From positions 1 to 34,397 of the forward strand of contig CAJBBC010000109.1 in assembly GCA_903951185.1 (NCBI GenBank): 34,397 nucleotides of DNA. The letters run 5' to 3'. This DNA is from an uncultured Actinomycetes bacterium (GTDB lineage Bacteria; Actinomycetota; Actinomycetes; S36-B12; UBA5976). Numbering within the stretch: the first letter of the stretch is position 1; the number at the start of each line of letters is the position of its first letter. Shown one piece after another: positions 3 through 34,396 of the stretch. Made by a program: the position numbers and the translations under genes. The notes under the pieces were generated by a model. It searched no databases. It saw only the letters and a program-made list of their open reading frames with translations, and had not been told where the DNA came from.

Positions 3-2363
3 GATGCCAATGACAACAATATTGTGGTTGGTTCCGGCCGAGTTACATCTTTAATTGATTTTGGTGATGTGATCATTGCCCCAAGAATTTGTGGCTTAGC
101 TGTAGCTTGTGCCTACACAATTCAAAATTTGGAAGACCCAGTTGCAGATTTTCTTCCAGTTATCCGCGGTTACCACAATGTGACACCATTTAGTGCTACA
201 GAGCTGAATCTAGTTTTTGGATTAATAAAATTACGAATTGCCACAAGTATCACAATGGCTGCAATTCAGTCCGCTAACAATCCAGATAATGACTACTTAC
301 TAATCAGCCAAGATAGTTTTCAAAAACTGATTCAATCACTTAATAAAGTTGATCCAAATTTAGCGCTCTACCGAATTCGCAGTGTTTGTGGATTTGAAGC
401 CAATCCACGCAGTCGTGAAATTCGTCAGTACTTAATGAGTGGCCGAGCTGCAATTAGCGATGTGGTGATGCCGCCGCTTCGAGATGTGCAAAAAATTTGG
501 CTTAACTGGGCAGGCGATAACCCAAATATTCCGAGGCAAACTGAACAAATCTTCACTTTAATGAGTCAAGCGGGTGCAGACCTTGCGATTGGTCACTACT
601 GCGAGAATCGTGAAGTTTACGAGGGCGAAGCATTTTCAGTAGATAGTCCAAACCGACGAACCGTGCACTTAGGTGTGGATTTATTTGCGCCAGCTGGAAC
701 ACCAGTATTTGCAGCGTTAGATGGTGTAGTTGAATATTTCAATGACAATAATGTCCATTTAGATTATGGCCCAGTAATTATTTTGCGTCATAAAACAGAT
801 ACTGGGATTCCTTTTTTCACACTTTATGGACACCTCTCCAGGCCATCCTTAGACAACCTGCATATAGGTAAAGAAATTTCGACTGGCGATTTAATCGCAA
901 CTATGGGCGAAGAGCACGAAAATGTTGGCTGGCCACCGCATACTCACTTCCAGTTACTAACTGACTTATGCGGAATGGGTTTAGATATTTATGGTGTGGC
1001 ACCACTTATTGAATTGCCAGTTTGGCGAAGTATTTCGCCAAATCCAAATCTAGTTTTGCAGATTGCGCAAGGAACTGATGCGCACACATTAATGCCAGTC
1101 GAGGTTTTAGCTCAGGAACGCCAAGTTGTTTTATCCCGAGCATTGAGCTTGAATTTTCAAGAACCGATTGAAATAGTTTCCGGTAAAGGCGCTTACTTAC
1201 ACGATCGTAAAGGTCGTCCTTATTTAGATTTAGTAAACAATGTGGCTCATGTTGGCCATTCACATCCTAGGGTTGTAGCCGCTGGTCAAAAACAAATGGC
1301 TACGTTAAATACAAATACGCGTTACTTAAATCAAAATGCAATTGAGTACGCCCGTTCACTAGCTAGTACTTTTCCAGATCCATTGAATGTTGTTTTCTTT
1401 GTTAATAGCGGATCAGAGGCAAACGATTTAGCGTTACGTCTTGCCCAGGCACATACAAAAGCCAAAGGTGTGATTGCTTTAGATCACGCTTACCACGGAC
1501 ATATCAGCAGCATTATCGATATAAGTCCATACAAATTTGCAGGCAAAGGTGGCGCCGGTCGACCAGATCATGTTCGCGTTGTCCCGACACCAGATAGCTA
1601 CAAAGGTTTACATCGAGGTGCTGATGCGGGTACAAAGTACGCTGCCGAATTTGCGGCACAACTTGCTGACTTAAAGCAACCACTTTGCGCATTTATCAGC
1701 GAATCGATTATTAGTACCGCTGGACAAATAACGTTGGCGCCAGGTTTCTTAAAATCCGCATATGAACAAACGCGCGCGGCTGGTGGTATTTGTATCGCGG
1801 ATGAAGTTCAGATTGGGATGGGTCGGGTCGGCGAGCATTTCTGGGGATTTGAACTACATGGAGTTGTTCCAGATATTGTCACCATCGGAAAACCAATTGG
1901 TAACGGACATCCGCTTGCTGCGGTAGTTACCACACCTGAAATTGCTCAATCATTCTTAACCGGAATGGAATACTTCAACACTTTTGGTGGTAATCCAGTT
2001 TCAGCAGCCATCGGCCAAGCAGTTTTGGATGTAGTTGCAGATCAGGGCTTACAAGCTAACGCTCAAAAAATGGGTAACTACTTAATGGATAGTGTTCGGG
2101 CGCTGGCTAGCAAAATTCCAGTTATCGGTGATGTCCGAGGAAGCGGATTATTTATTGGCGTTGAATTGGTTCTTGACCAAAAAACTCAAGAGCCAGCCAC
2201 AGCAATTACTGCCCAGTTACTCGAATTTGCTAAAAATCAAGGTGTCTTTTTATCTAGTGACGGTCCAGCAAATAACGTACTTAAAATAAAACCGCCAATG
2301 ATTATTAGTAAAACTGACGTTGATTTATTTTTATCAGTGTTTAAAGACGGTTTAACTAAATAG
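3..2363 (+). CDS. Fusion of an APH-like phosphotransferase, an M23 peptidase-like domain and a class III PLP aminotransferase/phospho-lyase (5'-partial)
   Basis: The frame is open to the window edge: DANDNNI...LIDFGD matches the kinase catalytic and Mg-binding motifs. HLGVD, YGHL and HTH are M23 motifs. [13 protein letters not shown] and TIGKPIGNG (PLP Lys) are class III aminotransferase motifs. The true start lies upstream of the window. Confidence 0.85.
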
Positions 2364-26091: not shown

Positions 26092-27024
26092 ATGCAAATT
26101 GAGCTTTCGGTGCTTCCGCATCTTTCGAGTGAAGAAATAACCGAAGTACTTGAAATTATTCAAGCCGCAACAATTCTTGATGACATGGCTCCACTTTCCG
26201 AACATGTTTTAATTCATTTGCGAATTGGCAGTGATTCGGCAGATGAGCATGTTTTAGCTCGCGATGAAAATAACAATTTAGTTGGCTACCTACATCTAGA
26301 CCGAACTGATGTGGTAGCTGGACCAGTAGTTGAAATCGTGGTTCATCCAACTGCGCGAAATAAAAAAGTTGGTACTCGGTTGGTTGAGTTTGCCGTGAGG
26401 CATCTTGCCGACGCAAGGCTTAGACTTTGGGCCCACGGTGAACTGGCTGGATCATATGCACTGGCTAAGAAAATGGGTTTTACAAAATCTCGAGAACTTT
26501 GGCAGATGCGTCGATCGCTGCTCGCTGAATTACCAAAATATGAATTACCTGCTGGATTTTTATTTAAACCATTTGAAGTTGGCCGCGATGAAGAAAACTG
26601 GTTGAAATTGAATGCCCAAGTTTTTGCCGAACATCCAGAGCAAGGACGGCTTACTAAATCCGATTTACAAATAAGAATGTCCGAAAATTGGTTCAATCCA
26701 TTGGGCTTTATCCTTGCGCAAAATCCTGCCGGCGAATTAATTGGTTATCACTGGACTAAAGTTCACGGCAATAAAGCAAAGTCAGATGAAAAGATTTCGC
26801 ACGGGCATTCCCAGCTTGGTGAAATTTATGTAATTGGAACTGCGCCTTCAGTTCGTGGCGTTGGATTAGGTAAGTCACTAGCACTGGCTGGATTAGATTA
26901 TCTTCGTGGTCAAGGGTTGCCGGCAGCGTTACTTTACGTTGATCGGGATAACTTAGCTGCGATTAAGTTATACGAAAGTATTGGCTTCTCGCACTGGGAT
27001 ACTGACGTGATGTTTCAGGCTTAG
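26092..27024 (+). CDS. mshD: Mycothiol synthase
   Basis: Tandem GNAT domains; WAHG, F.EHPEQG, HWTKVH, GEIYVIG and LYVD.DN. Confidence 0.95.
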   Translation: MQIELSVLPHLSSEEITEVLEIIQAATILDDMAPLSEHVLIHLRIGSDSADEHVLARDENNNLVGYLHLDRTDVVAGPVVEIVVHPTARNKKVGTRLVEFAVRHLADARLRLWAHGELAGSYALAKKMGFTKSRELWQMRRSLLAELPKYELPAGFLFKPFEVGRDEENWLKLNAQVFAEHPEQGRLTKSDLQIRMSENWFNPLGFILAQNPAGELIGYHWTKVHGNKAKSDEKISHGHSQLGEIYVIGTAPSVRGVGLGKSLALAGLDYLRGQGLPAALLYVDRDNLAAIKLYESIGFSHWDTDVMFQA

Positions 27025-27722
27025 TTGTTAAGCGTTATTTTGTCACCGGCAAAATATTGAGTCTTCTCACCGTTTTTAAAAATCCAAACAGATTTATTCC
27101 CTTGGACTTCCCACTGCGTTAATCCACCTACGAGTGCAGTTTCTTCGTCAATTCCGACAACTGTTAAACCTTTTGGTTCTTGTAAATAATGCAAAATAGT
27201 TGCGCCAATTTTTGCAAACATCCGATCAAAATGAGGTAACACTCGAATATTTGGCAGAATTCCAAGTCCACTTGTTGTTTGTTTAGAAATACTTCTTATT
27301 GAGGGAATGTGATTAGCAATTGCCATTGCACCTGCACTGCAGCCAGCTAACGCAGCTCCATTTTGCCAGGCAGCATAAATTGAGTCCCATAATTTAGTGT
27401 CGCGAAGAGTATCGGCTAAGTAATGTGGATCACCGCCAGAAAAATAAATTAATCCAGCATTAGAAATTTTTTCACTGAATTCTGGATTCTGGGCATCGGC
27501 TCGATTGCGAATTAATAGTGGAATTGGATTAACACCTATTCGTTGTGCTTGAGCAATTCCTAATTGCTGCCAATAATTTAAAGTTGATTCGCCTTCGGGT
27601 GCAGCAGCAGTAGGAATTTGAATGTAATTACTTGGTCGTCCAGCGATTAATTTTGCTTCAATCTCGGCCATCACTGGCAAATACTCACCTGAACCAACAA
27701 GTGCAATCGGACCCGGTTTCAA
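27021..27722 (-). CDS. Peptidase S51 (PepE/cyanophycinase-like) protein
   Basis: GSGE, YFSGGDP, GCSAGA (Ser), PHFD (His) and GIDEET (Glu); the TTG start overlaps the upstream TGA. Confidence 0.88.
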   Translation of the reverse strand: MKPGPIALVGSGEYLPVMAEIEAKLIAGRPSNYIQIPTAAAPEGESTLNYWQQLGIAQAQRIGVNPIPLLIRNRADAQNPEFSEKISNAGLIYFSGGDPHYLADTLRDTKLWDSIYAAWQNGAALAGCSAGAMAIANHIPSIRSISKQTTSGLGILPNIRVLPHFDRMFAKIGATILHYLQEPKGLTVVGIDEETALVGGLTQWEVQGNKSVWIFKNGEKTQYFAGDKITLNN

Positions 27723-28882
27723 TTGGAGTCTATTTCCCAGCTCGAACCTTGAGCTGAATCTTTAATAGTGACACTAAGCGAAGTAAGTTGATCGCGAATA
27801 ACATCGGCTTCATCCCAGCGGCCACTCGCTCTAGCCGCTTGTCTGGCTTGGAGTAATACTTCTATATACGGGCCAACTACATCATTGATGTTTACTTTTG
27901 GACTCGCTGCCATTTGGCCAAGTCGAGTGATAAGTGCATGCACTATTGCTCGAGTTTCTAAATCGCGATCTAAATCGTCCAATTCAAGAAGTGCATCAAC
28001 AGCAGCCATTACTTGGCCTGTTTCCAGTAGCTGTTCAACTTCATCAGGCGGTGTAGGTAGATGTATAGGAGAAGTTGCTACAACTCGGGTGACGCCACCA
28101 TGTGCTGCGATTTCTTCAAATGTAGTTTGTTCACCGGCTTGAACTGTCCAAACTTTCTCACCTTTTCGAACTGTTAATTTTCCGCGGCCAAAAACTTTTA
28201 CTTCTTTGGTATCTAAATCGAAACTCACACCAGTGTGTTCATCGATACCAATTATGAAAGTTGATTCCGGTAGTTGCTCTTCAAGGATGCGCATTCGTCG
28301 TTCACCCATGTAGCAATAACGTGTATCGTGCGTTCCACCTTCAGCATTATCAAAATGTGGAACAACTACAGCATCAAGTCCGGTGAATTTACCAAGTATG
28401 TTCAAGCCTTCAAGCCAATATGGATCTTCCCCAGCTTTATAGATTTCATAAACAGGAATTGTTTTTGAGCCGATAGTCAGGGCGGCAGCAGAGGCAAAAA
28501 CTAAAGTACCCACATCAAGAACTTTTTCAAGTTGTTGGAAAATTGCGGTTTCACGCCAGACTCGAAGTGCGTAACTTGGCGAACCTGGTCCAGCAAATAC
28601 CCATTTTGCATTTCGGAGTTGGTTTACTGCAGCGGCAATTCGCGCAGGTGTTTCGCCGATACTTCTTAGTTGTACTGGAGAAGTTTCGATTCCAACGGAT
28701 TTCATAAAGTAATCGGAAATTCGATTAGTTAGTTCATCTACGTTTTCTTGAAAACCAAAAGGAGTGTCTAAAAAATATGCACTATCTGGAGTTGCTTTTG
28801 TGTTGGCCCAAATCTGCTGATGTGGCGTAACCATAGTGGGACTAGTTTCGCCCGAACCCATCACAACAATTTGTCTAGCCAT
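27719..28882 (-). CDS. Peptidase S51-fold hydrolase fused to a CysRS-like C-terminal anticodon-binding domain
   Basis: GSGE, FAGPGSP, FASAAA, PHFDN and GIDEHT; C-terminus RQAARASGRWDEADVIRDQLTSLSVTIKDSAQGSSW; probably leaderless (TGcGAGAAT 6 nt before the ATG). Confidence 0.85.
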   Translation of the reverse strand: MARQIVVMGSGETSPTMVTPHQQIWANTKATPDSAYFLDTPFGFQENVDELTNRISDYFMKSVGIETSPVQLRSIGETPARIAAAVNQLRNAKWVFAGPGSPSYALRVWRETAIFQQLEKVLDVGTLVFASAAALTIGSKTIPVYEIYKAGEDPYWLEGLNILGKFTGLDAVVVPHFDNAEGGTHDTRYCYMGERRMRILEEQLPESTFIIGIDEHTGVSFDLDTKEVKVFGRGKLTVRKGEKVWTVQAGEQTTFEEIAAHGGVTRVVATSPIHLPTPPDEVEQLLETGQVMAAVDALLELDDLDRDLETRAIVHALITRLGQMAASPKVNINDVVGPYIEVLLQARQAARASGRWDEADVIRDQLTSLSVTIKDSAQGSSWEIDSN

Positions 28883-28994: not shown

Positions 28995-31151
28995 ATGTCC
29001 GATTTAGTCGCTTCCCAGCCACCAGCCGTAACGCTGCCTGGCGATCGATATCTGAATCGTGAGTTATCGTGGCTAGCTTTCAATCAGCGAGTACTTGAAT
29101 TAGCGCAAGACGAAAATATGGAACTACTTGAGCGAGTTAAGTACATATCGATTTTTTCAAGTAATTTAGATGAATTTTTCATGGTGCGTGTTGCCGGGTT
29201 AAAGCGGCGAATTGAAACTGGACTAGCCCGAAAAGACTCAAGTGGGATGCAACCTCGTGAACTACATGAAGCTATTTTGGCTGAGAGTTATTCGCAGATG
29301 AAAGAACTCGCAGCTACTTTTAATAATTCTGTATTACCAGCACTTGTCGCAAATGGAATTGAAATTTTACGCTGGGATGAATTAACAGTTGAAGAGCAAG
29401 AGCGCCTAAGCGTACTTTTTGCTGAACAGATTTTTCCAGTGCTAACACCACTTGCTGTCGACCCATCGCACCCATTCCCATATATTTCTGGTCTTTCATT
29501 AAATCTGGCTGTGCTAATGCAAAATCCAGATTCAGATAATGAATTATTCGCTCGAGTTAAAGTTCCGGCCTCATTACCAAGATTTTTTGAAGTTTCTCTT
29601 GAACGTTTTGTTCCACTTGAGGACGTTATTTCAGGGCATTTGAATATGTTGTTTCCTGGAATGAAAATAATGCAGCACCATACTTTTCGAGTCACTCGAA
29701 ATGAGGAACTCGAAGTTGAAGAGGATGATGCAGAGAATTTACTGCACGCCCTTGAGAAGGAATTAAGTCGCCGACGTTTCGGTGCTCCAGTTCGCCTTGA
29801 AGTCGAAAATTCTATTGACCCACACATACTTGATTTGATTGTTAGCGAAGTTGGAGTAGAGCAAAATGAAGTATTCAAGTTAACCGGACCCCTTGAACTT
29901 GAATCTTTAATGGAATTAGCAAAGTTAAAGCGCGAAGATTTGAGTGCGCCTGTTTTTGTATCTCGAACAAGTACCGCTTTGGCCGAGGTGGAATCCTCTT
30001 CAGCACCAGATGTACTCGAAGTTATGCGGCACCGGGATATTTTGCTGCATCATCCATATGATTCTTTTTCAACCAGTATGCAATTATTTTTGGAACAAGC
30101 GGCTGCTGATCCGAATGTATTAGCGATTAAGCAAACGCTTTACCGAACATCAGGCGACTCACCAATCGTTAACTCGTTAATCGACGCAGCGCGAGCCGGA
30201 AAACAGGTGCTAGCTGTCGTTGAAATTAAAGCCCGATTTGATGAGCTGAACAATATCGAATGGGCCCGAAAACTCGAAGAGTATGGCGTACATGTGGTCT
30301 ATGGAATTGTTGGATTGAAAACACATGCCAAACTTTGTTTAGTAGTTCGAAATGATGGTGGAAAGTTAAATCGGTATGTTCATATCGGCACTGGAAACTA
30401 CAATCCAAAAACTGCTCGAGCTTACGAGGATTATGGTCTACTAACTACCGACCCAAAGATTTGTGAAGATGTAGCAAGCTTGTTCAATTTACTTTCTGGC
30501 TACGGAGTGCAATCGAACTACAAGCGATTAATTGTTGCGCCTAAAGAATTGCGTAACACGCTTGTAGAAAAAATTGATCGCGAAACAGCTAATGCTTGGA
30601 TTGGTTTAACTGCCGGAATTCGAATTAAATGTAATTCGATTGTGGACGAAACAATCATTGACGCCCTTTATCGGGCATCTTGTGCCGGTGTAAAAGTCGA
30701 GGTTCTCGTTCGCGGTATGTGCTCAGTTAAGCCAGGAATCCCGGGACTATCCGAGAATATTCAAGTGCGAAGTATTTTAGGTCGCTTTCTTGAACATAGC
30801 CGAGTTTACGAATTCATGAACGCCGGCAGTCGTGAAGTTTGGATTGGCTCAGCAGATTTAATGCACCGAAATCTTGATCGCCGTGTTGAAGCACTCGTAC
30901 AAATTAACTTTCCGGAAGCTTCTTCAATAGTGCAAGTCCTTGACCTTGGATTTGCGCCTTCAACTTCCGCTTGGCACTTAGCCCCAAGCGGTGAGTGGAT
31001 TCGTCATAATCTTGATGCGGATGGCGAACCGCTTATTGATTTTCAGGAATATTTGATAAATAACCATCCGATTGCCAAATCAGGAGCCGATAATCCAACT
31101 CCACGTTTGATTAATTCGATCTTAAATAAGGTTGGTCTAGGTGAGCGATAA
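28995..31151 (+). CDS. ppk1: Polyphosphate kinase 1
   Basis: [40 protein letters not shown] and RFLEHSR. The ATG at 28995 is preferred to the TTG at 28962. Confidence 0.97.
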
Positions 31152-32058
31152 GCGCATCATTGCCGCTGGCGCGGTTGTTACTCGTGAAACTAATGGAGTT
31201 ACAGAATATCTTTTGATTTACCGTGGATACCGGGACGATTGGACTTTTCCAAAAGGAAAAGTTGACCCAGGTGAACATATTATTAGCGCAGCCATTCGAG
31301 AAGTTAGAGAAGAAACAGGATTTGCCGTTCAATTAGGAATACCGTTGCCGATGGCAACTTACCTGAAAAATAATTTAGTTAAAGATGTTCATTATTGGCA
31401 TGCAAAATTACTCGGTGGTACTTTTGTTAAGAATGATGAAGTTATTGAAATTAAGTGGCTAAATTTCGAGAAAACAAAAAAATTACTCACCTACGAACAT
31501 GATATTGAAATACTGGAAGCGGCGGCTCAAGCGGTCGAAACATCACCACTTATTGTCTTGCGACATACCCAGGCCATTAAACGAGCGGAGTGGGCTATAG
31601 CTAAAGATAGTTTGTCCGAGTTTGATGCCAGGCGTCCGCTAACCGCCGTTGGTCGAATTCAAGCAAATGGTTTAGTTCCAGCACTTGCTGCTTTTGGTAT
31701 TGCGCTTCTACACACTTCAGATTCCCGTCGCTGCCGAGATACCCTAGGCCCCTATTCAAGTGCGCGAAGTATCCCAATAACTCTTGAAGAAACTTTAAGT
31801 GAGGAACGTCATCTAGCGGATCCTAAAAAGGCACTTGCCCGAGTTGCTCAAATATTGAAATCGGAATTACCTCTGGCTATTTGTACGCATCGCCCAGTTT
31901 TGCCAACAATTATGGAAGCCTTGAGCGACTCAGTTGAACTATTGAATCCGACTAAAAAGTCATTTGATCCAGCTTTAACCCCTGGATCAATGGTGATCTT
32001 TCATCGGGACATTCGTGATTTAACAAAAGTTATTTCAGTAGAACGGCACATTCACTAA
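31141..32058 (+). CDS. mutT1: NUDIX hydrolase with a C-terminal histidine-phosphatase domain (MutT1-like)
   Basis: Nudix box GKVDPGE-x7-REVREETG; C-terminal LRH, R.L..G..QA, RC..T and CTH. Confidence 0.88.
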
Positions 32059-32075: not shown

Positions 32076-32924
32076 TTATCCGAAGCGGCCTGAGATGTAA
32101 TCTTCAGTTCGAGTATCTGTTGGATTTGTAAAAATTTTCGTTGTTAAATCAACTTCAACTAAGTGTCCGTATCGCTGACCCCGGTCATCAACTTTTGCAC
32201 TAAAGAAAGCGGTCCGATCAGAAACACGAGCGGCTTGCTGCATATTGTGTGTCACGATAACAACCGTGTAGTCCGAAACCAGTTCAATCATCAAATCTTC
32301 AATTAAAGCTGTCGCGATTGGATCTAGAGATGCACAAGGTTCATCCATTAATAAGATATCTGGCTCAACAGCAATTGCTCGCGCAATACAAAGTCTTTGC
32401 TGTTGTCCACCAGATAGTGCAAAACCACTTTGATCTAATTTGTCTTTAACTTCACCCCAGAGTCCAGCCCGCGTTAAAGCATATTCAACTAAGTCTTCGG
32501 TTTCAGACTTATTCATTTTCATACCGGTAACGCGTGGGCCATAAGCGATATTGTCAAAAATTGATTTAGGAAAAGGATTTGGTTTTTGAAAAACCATTCC
32601 AATTCGGCGACGTACTTCAATGGCGTCAACTGAGGGGCCATAGAGATCGTGGCCGCGATAATCAATTCGACCATCAACACGTGCACCTGGAACTAAATCA
32701 TTCGTGCGATTAAGGCAACGCAGCACTGTTGATTTACCGCAACCGGAGGGACCGATAAAAGCCGTAATTTGATTACGACCAACATCAAGTGTGATGTCAC
32801 GCACGGCATGGAAGTCACCGTAATAGACATCTAAATTACTAATTTCCATAATCGGGTTAAACGTTGCAACACGGTCACTGTGCTTAACCGTCATCTGACG
32901 GGCACCGATACTTGATTCAGTCAT
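32076..32924 (-). CDS. pstB: Phosphate ABC transporter ATPase
   Basis: [38 protein letters not shown] and YISGRFG. Confidence 0.97.
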
Positions 32925-32939
32925 TTTTGCTCTCCCCTA

Positions 32940-33824
32940 TTACCAACGCTTGGCAAACTTATTGCGAATGAAAATTGCGATTGCATTCAAAGTCAACAAA
33001 ATTGCTAGCAATAAAATAATTGCTGCAGCTGCTAGAGTTTTGAATTCTTCTTGTGGTGCACTAGTCCAACCAAATATTTGAATTGGCATAGTGGTAAATC
33101 CAGCTGTTAAACCATTTGGATCGTAAGTGATGAAGACGAGAGCGCCAAGAAGTAATAGCGGTGCTGCTTCACCCATCGCTCTGGAAATTGCCAAAATAGT
33201 TCCGGTGGCAATTCCGGGCACCGCAGCTGGCAAGGTTTGCCGGCCAACAGTTTGTAATTGAGTTGCGCCTAGGGCCAATGACCCATCACGAATTTCTTGC
33301 GGTACTGCACGCAACGCTTCTCGGGTGGTCAAGATAATGACTGGGAGAATTAGCAACGCTAAAGCAAGCGCGCCACCAAATACCACATTCTTATTTTTAA
33401 AACCCATCAGCGACAAAATACCAAGTGTTAACATGCCGTAAAGAATTGCTGGCACCGCAGCCAAGTTTTGTATATTCAATTCAATCGCCCGGTTGTACCA
33501 CTTTGTTTTATCGGCAAATTCTTCTAAATAAATTGCTGAGGCGATTCCGATTGGGATTGCTAGCAGCGCAGTGATTGAAACTACAAATACTGAACCAAGT
33601 ATCGCTGCTCTGGCACCTGCATCTTTTGGTGTGGTGTTGTTGTACTCAGTGAATAAACGTAGGTCATATCGGCCAATACCATTCATAAAAGTAGTGACTA
33701 ACAAAATAACCAAGAACATGAAAGCGACAAAAAGACTGAACCAAAGTACGCCTAAGAAAAGCATTGACTTAATGTTGGATTCACTATTTTTGCTCTTATT
33801 TGTTACGCCGACATCAAATGACAT
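32940..33824 (-). CDS. pstA: Phosphate ABC transporter permease PstA
   Basis: AIYLEE, NLAAVPAILYG, EALRAVP...SLALGAT and RAMGEAAPL. Confidence 0.94.
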   Translation of the reverse strand: MSFDVGVTNKSKNSESNIKSMLFLGVLWFSLFVAFMFLVILLVTTFMNGIGRYDLRLFTEYNNTTPKDAGARAAILGSVFVVSITALLAIPIGIASAIYLEEFADKTKWYNRAIELNIQNLAAVPAILYGMLTLGILSLMGFKNKNVVFGGALALALLILPVIILTTREALRAVPQEIRDGSLALGATQLQTVGRQTLPAAVPGIATGTILAISRAMGEAAPLLLLGALVFITYDPNGLTAGFTTMPIQIFGWTSAPQEEFKTLAAAAIILLLAILLTLNAIAIFIRNKFAKRW

Positions 33825-34396
33825 TAGTAAGCCTCCCGGAAGCGACGTACCAATTTAATACTGATGAAATTAATTAGTAATGTTGAAATGAAAAGTAATA
33901 ACCCAACTGCAAATAATGTGTCGTACTGCAATGACCCAACCCGTGAATCACCAAGGGCGGCATTTGCAATGAAGCCAGTCATAGTTTGAGCGCCTTCAAG
34001 TGGATTAGCCGAAATATTCGGTTTATTTCCAGCAGCTAAAGCCACGATCATAGTTTCACCGACAGCGCGTGAGATACCTAAAACAATTGCAGCGGCAATA
34101 CCAGAAAGTGCGGCTGGAAAAACAACCCGCAAAGTTGTTTGCATTTTATTTGCCCCAAGGGCCATCGAACCTTGACGCATAGCCATCGGCACTGAAGAAA
34201 GTGCGTCTTCCGAAAGCGAGGCAATAGTAGGAATTATCATCACGCCCATAACTAAGCCAGCTGACAGCACTGAGAATGTGCCAATGTCTAGTTGTAGCCA
34301 ACCCTTTAAAACAATTCTGGTCACAAATTCAATGGCAAAAAATCCATACACGACTGTTGGAATACCAGCTAAAAGTTCAAGGACTGGCTTTAATTT
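33824..34396 (-). CDS. pstC: Phosphate ABC transporter permease PstC (5'-partial)
   Basis: The frame is open to the window edge (KPVLELLAGIPTVVYG); SEDAL and SRAVGETM motifs. Confidence 0.93.
   Translation of the reverse strand, partial: KLKPVLELLAGIPTVVYGFFAIEFVTRIVLKGWLQLDIGTFSVLSAGLVMGVMIIPTIASLSEDALSSVPMAMRQGSMALGANKMQTTLRVVFPAALSGIAAAIVLGISRAVGETMIVALAAGNKPNISANPLEGAQTMTGFIANAALGDSRVGSLQYDTLFAVGLLLFISTLLINFISIKLVRRFREAY

Follow-up and report, generated by a model that had tools for sequence, protein, structure and literature searches.

The window analyzed is the complete 34,397 nucleotide (nt) stretch of contig CAJBBC010000109.1, from the assembly GCA_903951185.1 of an uncultured Actinomycetes bacterium. 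Its reverse strand contains an open reading frame (ORF) of 387 amino acids (aa) plus a stop codon at positions 27719–28882, which encodes an S51-type hydrolase joined to the anticodon-binding domain of cysteinyl-tRNA synthetase (CysRS). The product is termed here the fusion protein. The gene is located between ppk, which is divergent and 80 nt off, and the ORF of a 233 aa S51 paralog, whose TTG start overlaps the TGA stop codon of the fusion gene in the sequence TTGA. The reading frame and all the motifs quoted in a first-pass annotation, made from the sequence alone, were confirmed at the spacing given there. These are GPGSP (aa 98–102), FASAAA (129–134), PHFDN (175–179), GIDEHT (212–217) and, at the C-terminal end, R347-x3-R351-x4-W356-x3-D360-x2-R363-x11-D375...G379-S-S-W382. 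The AlphaFold2 (AF2) model of the full-length protein has a mean predicted local distance difference test score (pLDDT) of 93.7 and a predicted TM-score of 0.81. The N-terminal sequence, MARQIVVMGSGE..., displays no signal peptide by eye, no predictor having been run.

Domains of the fusion protein

The C-terminal region is matched by the Pfam family CysS_C (PF23493) over residues 340–382 (35.6 bits, E-value = 1e-8, cut-off 23). In a genome-wide search the score of the fusion protein for this family is 37.6 bits, compared with 26.7 bits for the CysRS of the genome itself. The latter is a 465 aa protein encoded on a separate contig (C119, locus L002:1486-2883, −), and by eye its residues corresponding to R427 and W432 of E. 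coli CysRS are K and F. A phmmer search of Protein Data Bank (PDB) sequences finds CysRS 3tqo (E-value = 8.4e-6) and the E. coli enzyme 1li5 (E-value = 0.0026). The alignment with 1li5 has a constant offset of 76, thus R423, R427, W432, D436, R439 and D451 of E. coli CysRS pair with R347, R351, W356, D360, R363 and D375 of the fusion protein.

A profile (A2) was made from the C-terminal 120 residues of 74 homologs at species level. Its positions 4–116 match residues 369–486 of CysRS 8qhp with an E-value of 6.7e-13 (113 positions), and 1li5 is matched with an E-value of 9.4e-11. The CysRS-derived piece thus spans from the FxxAMDDDFNT helix bundle to the C-terminus. By homology, the C-terminal ~110 aa are the whole anticodon-binding domain of CysRS, i.e. 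the helical bundle together with the C-terminal alpha/beta subdomain. The likeness to the CysRS C-terminus proposed in the first-pass annotation was recovered by both profile and structure searches, with the 1li5 residues in register. Residues 335–387, to which it had been assigned, do match, but the likeness is not limited to them.

An AF2 model of the C-terminal part alone has a pLDDT of 91.8. The best Foldseek match of this model is the E. coli CysRS-tRNA(Cys) structure 1u0b_B (E-value = 0.019, probability 0.98), and no match lies below an E-value of 0.001. The best VIA match is Borrelia CysRS 3sp1_B (Z 8.0, rmsd 2.1 Å, 51 aa), and with the full-length model residues 274–385 superpose on 3sp1_B residues 361–480 with Z 8.2. 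The main support for a CysRS origin is the profile match, which is stronger than the fold scores.

The catalytic domain of the synthetase, a class I Rossmann domain with HIGH and KMSKS motifs, is absent. The cysS model TIGR00435 (cut-off 340) gives 25.1 bits, and the match is restricted to residues 317–383 of the protein, which correspond to model positions 397–464. The cyanophycinase equivalog TIGR02069 covers residues 207–256 only, at 18.2 bits against 126.6. Since both NCBIfam scores fall far under their cut-offs, the fusion protein has neither a synthetase catalytic domain, as had been noted from the motifs, nor the status of a cyanophycinase equivalog.

The first-pass annotation had equated the C-terminal motif with the anticodon-recognition set of E. 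coli CysRS, in which it included D451. Across the 74 tails of the A2 alignment, no columns are invariant except R347, R351, D360, R363, D375 and W382. Five of these six align with the E. coli contact positions named above, and the sixth named position, 356, is aromatic in all 74 sequences (W in 29, F in 28 and Y in 17). The chance that at least five of six invariant columns among 120 fall on the six named positions is 1.9e-7, a figure to be read with the contact residues being likewise the conserved ones in CysRS itself. Selection on the C-terminal domain of the fusion protein looks like that on CysRS. In passages of two papers, Arg427, Asp436, Trp432 and Arg423 of CysRS are described as contacting G34, and residues 427, 432, 436 and 439 are those altered to switch anticodon specificity (PMC12684709, PMC13449415). 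The literature passages thus support R423, R427, W432, D436 and R439 of the set; D451, which is not mentioned in them, is a putative member.

A wider alignment (A1) contains 132 representatives of 50%-identity clusters. The motif residues are present in nearly all of these: R347 in 127, R351 in 124, an aromatic residue at position 356 in 127, D360 and R363 in 126 each, and D375 in 124. One of the two strict patterns, for the Glu motif and the RxxxR motif, is missed by 25 of the 132 sequences. At the genome level the strict motif is found at the C-terminus in 111 of 111 loci (80 + 31, described below). Loss of the anticodon residues among homologs, which according to the first-pass annotation would speak against its reading, was not seen; these residues and the catalytic triad are both kept.

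The N-terminal domain is of the S51 type by the fold of the model, and it is diverged in sequence. Pfam Peptidase_S51 (PF03575) matches residues 7–222 with 19.5 bits (21.1 bits in the genome search), which is under the gathering threshold of 23.9, and about one third of the listed close homologs carry a precomputed match to this family. Foldseek with the full-length model finds 6nqc (E-value = 6.4e-14), cyanophycinase 3en0 (1.5e-10) and 6a4r (1.5e-10). VIA superposes the same model on S51 structures with Z 25.6 (6nqc), 23.8 (cyanophycinase) and 22.0 (PepE), with a further value of 24.1. In an hhalign comparison of the family profile with the neighboring paralog (probability 98.3%) the triad S131/H176/E215 is in register. 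The motifs pair as FASAAA/CSAGA, PHFDN/PHFDR, GIDEHT/GIDEET and GPGSP/GGD, and the fusion family has an 8-residue insert after the catalytic His.

Invariant among the 132 A1 sequences are G98-P99-G100, S131-A132 and H176. Conservation is at least 90% for residues D214-E215-H216-T217, H21, E12, H185-D186-T187 and C190 and for three family-specific inserts, DTPyGFQeNA, PVYEIYK and NAEGGTHDTRfC. The complete S51 triad with altered loops that had been read from the sequence is thus borne out by the hhalign register and by conservation in 132 homologs. Judged from these residues, the catalytic machinery is retained and the substrate pocket is remodeled; the hydrolase domain looks active.

The Glu and RxxxR motifs lie 105–192 aa apart in the 107 of 132 homologs that match both patterns. 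The linker between the two domains thus has a length range of almost 90 residues in the family, and it is partly of low complexity. The features of the locus are listed in Table 1.

Table 1. Features of the fusion gene and its downstream neighbor, in window coordinates
Feature	Residues (aa)	Positions (nt)	Strand	Basis or remarks
Whole ORF	387 + stop	27719–28882	−	ORF reading, Pfam, NCBIfam, phmmer, AF2 model
S51-type (class I glutamine-amidotransferase-like) hydrolase domain	1–262	28097–28882	−	Fold, triad alignment, conservation
Catalytic residues	Ser131; His176; Glu215	28490–28492; 28355–28357; 28238–28240	−	Paralog alignment, conservation
Family-specific insert NAEGGTHDT-x2-C	179–190			After catalytic His, in the S51-type domain
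Linker	263–279	28046–28096	−	Lower model confidence (pLDDT blocks 73–88); length variable across the family
Helical subdomain of CysRS-type anticodon-binding domain	280–331	27890–28045	−	Equivalent to FxxAMDDDFNT helix-bundle region of CysRS; A2 profile, VIA
C-terminal alpha/beta subdomain (Pfam CysS_C)	332–387	27722–27889	−	Pfam, phmmer, conservation, VIA, Foldseek
Anticodon-contact set	R347, R351, W356, D360, R363, D375	27758–27844	−	Within the C-terminal alpha/beta subdomain, as is W382
Downstream S51 paralog	233	27021–27722	−	Canonical GGD, CSAGA, PHFD and GIDEET motifs

Family distribution and gene neighborhood

The family is large. A word-indexed protein search gave at least 7833 significant sequences among 8000 candidates, and 437 clusters reached an E-value of 1e-30 or lower when cluster representatives were searched exhaustively. 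The homologs are named "cyanophycinase-like exopeptidase", "peptidase E" or hypothetical protein in the sources. A scan of one genome per species confirmed at least 599 stretches, of 600 matches listed, and the best 80 of these (L064–L143) are referred to as the species loci. By record title, the Actinomycetota among the best 80 include Nanopelagicales, Acidimicrobiia, Micromonosporaceae, Pseudonocardiaceae, Kineosporia, Angustibacter and Ferrithrix thermotolerans. Also represented are Chloroflexia and other Chloroflexota, Limnocylindrales and Rokuibacteriota, with two metagenome-assembled genomes (MAGs) labeled Bifidobacterium and one Saccharimonadales MAG. Within this set the family is common in Chloroflexota and Acidimicrobiia.

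In a phylum sample of 401 genomes, 95 have some match and 31, including the present genome, have a strong full-length one (rows with E-value < 1e-60). The remaining rows match either the C-terminal part only, in open frames of ~450–700 aa, or the S51 part weakly; the C-terminal-only matches are probably the CysRS proteins of those genomes. Four unpublished genomes (G239, G336, G082 and G048) appear among the weak rows only. Among 24 other genomes of the window's genus, 23 retain the gene, and the genus genomes that carry it are streamlined. In other families of the order it is found in 7 of 16 genomes.

Five metagenome clusters contain longer forms. P0393–P0397 (1133–1224 aa) have the S51 and CysRS-reader unit at the N-terminal end, followed by a multi-pass membrane region with about six hydrophobic segments by a crude count and then by a C-terminal SCO1/SenC thioredoxin-fold domain with a CxxxC motif. 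These represent either a fusion confined to one lineage or the loss of a stop codon. The SCO1/membrane partner adjoins the gene in none of the 111 genome loci, and one homolog of the membrane part is located 3 kb downstream in L124. The long SCO1 fusions were not used as functional evidence. A further cluster, P0392 (768 aa), looks like a frameshifted call.

The only recurrent partner of the fusion gene is a second serine hydrolase in the operon, which is of one type or another according to lineage. An alpha/beta hydrolase gene is found directly upstream on the same strand, at 0–95 nt and often overlapping, in 48 of the 80 species loci, 72 of which have at least 900 nt of upstream sequence. 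It occurs across Acidimicrobiia, Chloroflexota, Rokuibacteriota and several families of Actinomycetes (L074–L143). The copy at L103:5141-6001 (+) is an example, with an Abhydrolase_1 match and the nucleophile motif GQSWGG. The protein is of a generic kind; its best PDB matches are haloperoxidases and esterases at an E-value of about 1e-15, over the N-terminal third only. No homolog was found in the present genome, which is 90% complete.

The S51 paralog is the other partner. It is an ortholog of PDB 6NQC, a "peptidase from an acI-B1 Actinobacterium" (E-value = 1.6e-63), and some sources label its homologs "cyanophycinase". It adjoins the fusion gene in 8 of 11 loci of relatives and in 6 of the 80 species loci, and it is a probable operon partner in Nanopelagicales. 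A complex prediction for the S51 domain (aa 1–262, A1) with the paralog (A3) gave 0.00 in both runs, which is evidence neither way.

Neighbor clustering, made on a reduced ORF set, showed no further conserved neighbor besides the two hydrolases. In subsets of loci a Mn/Zn-type ABC transporter, a heme A synthase-like gene and oxidoreductases are repeatedly present, a pattern that resembles synteny within lineages. The mshD gene does abut the gene pair, as had been noted; it lies at 26092–27024 on the forward strand and is convergent (TIGR03448, 299 bits). It is kept, adjacent or a few kb away, in 6 of the 11 loci of relatives, in one of the 80 species loci (L064) and in none of 20 distant loci of the phylum. 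A glnR gene and a NUDIX-histidine-phosphatase gene flank the region, and the order glnR-mshD...ppk-mutT1 is conserved within the genus only. The segment 28962–34396 of the window contains ppk and then the NUDIX and histidine-phosphatase gene (31141–32058). The ORFs at 32079–34396 (−) have the same order in the genus, and an example homolog displays ABC ATPase motifs; the names pstB, pstA and pstC for them are a by-eye reading with no family search.

Contigs of RNA libraries from three studies cover the fusion gene, but contigs cannot prove transcription. A metatranscriptome contig of 1246 nt spans positions 27640–28881, and thus the ORF and its junction into the paralog, with 34 differences. 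The contig ends one base short of the ATG at 28880–28882. This could fit a leaderless transcript, with the reservation that contigs cannot show transcript ends.

Elsewhere the genome has one tRNA-Cys(GCA) gene and a full MshC of its own (533.8 bits, cut-off 485). No cyanophycin synthetase scores above the cut-off (best 100.8 bits against 850, in a genome 90% complete). A third S51 gene, at C116:42867-43385 (+) within a 252 aa open frame, is the best Pfam S51 match of the genome (106 bits) and could encode a real PepE- or cyanophycinase-type peptidase.

Possible function on tRNA(Cys) and alternatives

The joining of a hydrolase to a CysRS anticodon reader suggests that the fusion protein probably works on tRNA(Cys) rather than on cyanophycin, the substrate implied by its usual annotation. 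We tentatively propose that it is a trans-acting, tRNA(Cys)-specific acyl-tRNA hydrolase, and we infer the steps that go beyond architecture and conservation. The CysRS-derived domain would bind tRNA and read the GCA anticodon as CysRS does. The S51-type domain, on its linker of variable length, would attack an acyl group that is ester-linked to the 3′ end of tRNA(Cys), and a seryl acyl-enzyme would form at Ser131 and then be hydrolyzed. The outcome would be quality control of tRNA(Cys) that is wrongly acylated or carries a damaged acyl group. The second hydrolase of the operon, an alpha/beta hydrolase in most lineages and the S51 paralog in Nanopelagicales, would probably handle the released product or act in a complex with the fusion protein.

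A more specific form of this proposal is rather doubtful, namely that the family is a new class of aminoacyl-tRNA quality-control enzyme which clears particular aberrant acyl species from tRNA(Cys). Oxidized cysteine (the sulfinate, an Asp look-alike), persulfide and selenocysteine may serve as examples, the idea of an Asp mimic being purely conjectural. CysRS is not known to have an editing site, so that in Actinomycetota and Chloroflexota the fusion protein would supply the proofreading that cysteine codons otherwise lack.

The chemistry and the design both have precedents. According to passages of PMC9239234, S51 enzymes cut at the carboxyl group of an amino acid whose amino group is free, and the substrate of MccG is an isoaspartyl-nucleotide. 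On chemical grounds, an aminoacyl ester at A76 would thus be a sensible substrate. Free-standing editing proteins, described in part of PMC2943090 as aminoacyl-tRNA synthetase homologs without an acylation domain, occur in all three domains of life. By analogy, the design of the fusion protein would copy that of a synthetase or a free-standing editing factor, in which an anticodon reader picks the tRNA and catalysis, by a separate domain, takes place at another site of that tRNA. Retention of the gene in streamlined genomes, 23 of 24 in the genus, also favors the proposal.

Several points weigh against an acyl-tRNA hydrolase. The pocket differs from that of known S51 enzymes (GPGSP for GGD and the 8 aa insert after the His), thus specificity for Asp-like groups cannot be assumed. 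CysRS is very accurate without editing, and a need for editing of tRNA(Cys) is therefore not established. A deacylase has no obvious need for a partner hydrolase, yet a partner is conserved. The variable linker fits a tether, but it fits mere recruitment or a sensor role as well. Judged by sequence, a deacylase looks no different from a protein for which tRNA(Cys) is an allosteric ligand, both of them options raised in the first-pass annotation. The fold match of the C-terminal part is modest (Z 8.0 compared with 7.5 for unrelated helical proteins, and a Foldseek E-value of 0.019); this is due to the small size and helical nature of the domain.

A sensor role would apply if the S51 domain, together with the partner hydrolase, degraded a peptide and the CysRS-derived domain acted solely as a tRNA(Cys) sensor or switch, which would couple the breakdown of peptides to the availability of cysteine. 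A parallel is GCN2, whose HisRS-like domain senses uncharged tRNA. We regard such a regulated peptidase as unlikely. The conserved operon partners are both hydrolases of the peptidase or esterase type, the linker is flexible and variable in length, and the S51 fold is otherwise known from peptidases, all of which agree with it. However, an anticodon reader alone cannot distinguish charged from uncharged tRNA, the pocket is remodeled relative to known peptidases, and a conserved transporter or peptide-related neighbor was not found. The conserved second enzyme can also be explained, and better than by simple editing, if it belongs to a short pathway in which the fusion protein is an aminoacyl transferase. 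Cysteine or another residue would pass from charged tRNA(Cys) to Ser131 and then to an amine or thiol acceptor, giving a small molecule or peptide that contains Cys, and the partner hydrolase would trim or recycle this product. S51 enzymes do use an acyl-enzyme, which was trapped in 7uqw according to the title of the entry, and the same architecture and conservation would serve a transferase. The hydrolase excepted, however, no acceptor-binding domain or biosynthetic neighbor recurs in the 111 loci, and a transferase appears quite unlikely. The version of it put forward in the first-pass annotation, with a link to MshC and mycothiol, is weakened further because the genome has its own MshC, mshD is adjacent within the genus only, and both Chloroflexota and Acidimicrobiia commonly carry the family.

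The naming of the homologs in the sources, as "cyanophycinase-like exopeptidase" or "peptidase E", would be correct if the CysRS-derived domain did not bind tRNA and were a dimerization module, or a module for binding protein or other RNA, of an ordinary cyanophycinase-like exopeptidase. Passages of papers on the acI lineage also treat these genes as cyanophycinase (PMC5574706, PMC12817590). This appears very improbable. Only the base-contacting residues are invariant in the domain, a pattern difficult to account for unless an anticodon is the ligand. The cyanophycinase equivalog score is 18.2 bits against 126.6, no cyanophycin synthetase is found above the cut-off in the 90%-complete genome, and no signal peptide is seen by eye.

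Relation to known systems and significance

The fusion protein shares ~110 homologous aa with bacterial CysRS (E. coli 1LI5/1U0B), including the equivalents of R423, R427, W432, D436, R439 and D451, and its C-terminal subdomain superposes at 2.1 Å. Unlike CysRS, it is without the Rossmann catalytic, connective peptide and stem-contact domains and has an S51 hydrolase instead. With the S51 peptidases (CphB 3EN0/7UQW, dipeptidase E 6A4R/1FY2 and 6NQC) it shares the fold (Z 22–26) and the Ser-His-Glu triad. However, it falls under the Pfam and TIGRFAM thresholds, has GPGSP for GGD, SAA for SAG and inserts of its own, and carries a tRNA-reader domain that is present in none of the solved S51 enzymes. 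MccG, which inactivates processed microcin C, is an S51 hydrolase that acts on an amino-acid carboxyl with a nucleotide leaving group, which is near to an aminoacyl-adenosine; it differs in being a single-domain enzyme of a small molecule, with no RNA-binding domain described for it in the passages of PMC9239234.

The trans-editing factors AlaX, YbaK/ProX and archaeal ThrRS-ed are similar in proposed function only, as hydrolases that act in trans on mis-acylated tRNA. ThrRS-ed combines an editing module with the anticodon-binding domain of the synthetase. The hydrolase folds of these factors appear to be unrelated to the S51 fold, and no YbaK/ProX, AlaX or DTD family is found among the Pfam, NCBIfam, Foldseek or VIA matches of the fusion protein. 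We know of no tRNA(Cys)-specific editing factor.

The domain combination itself can be read from precomputed Pfam annotations, and one automatically named cluster is called "Cysteinyl-tRNA synthetase family protein". A characterized protein of this architecture, of which the first-pass annotation knew none, was also not found in the literature searched, from which subscription journals and supplements were left out. Where a tRNA reader derived from an aminoacyl-tRNA synthetase directs an enzyme other than a synthetase, the hydrolase fold seen here is unprecedented in that role.

If the fusion protein does act on tRNA(Cys), it would be, to our knowledge, the first tRNA(Cys)-specific trans-acting hydrolase and the first S51-fold enzyme that acts on a substrate linked to RNA. 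In two large phyla, cysteine codons would thereby gain an additional translational checkpoint. There is a consequence for ecology as well. In passages of PMC5574706 and PMC12817590, a "cyanophycinase" of acI/Nanopelagicales, which may be the gene treated here or a different one, is cited as evidence of feeding on cyanobacterial cyanophycin. In the present genome the 6NQC ortholog and a tRNA(Cys)-reader fusion form an overlapping gene pair, which speaks for a role inside the cell. The cyanophycin-based inference for the abundant freshwater acI lineage thus needs support for the role of that gene, and if the quality-control reading is true, the "cyanophycinase" genes of freshwater acI would not be about cyanophycin.

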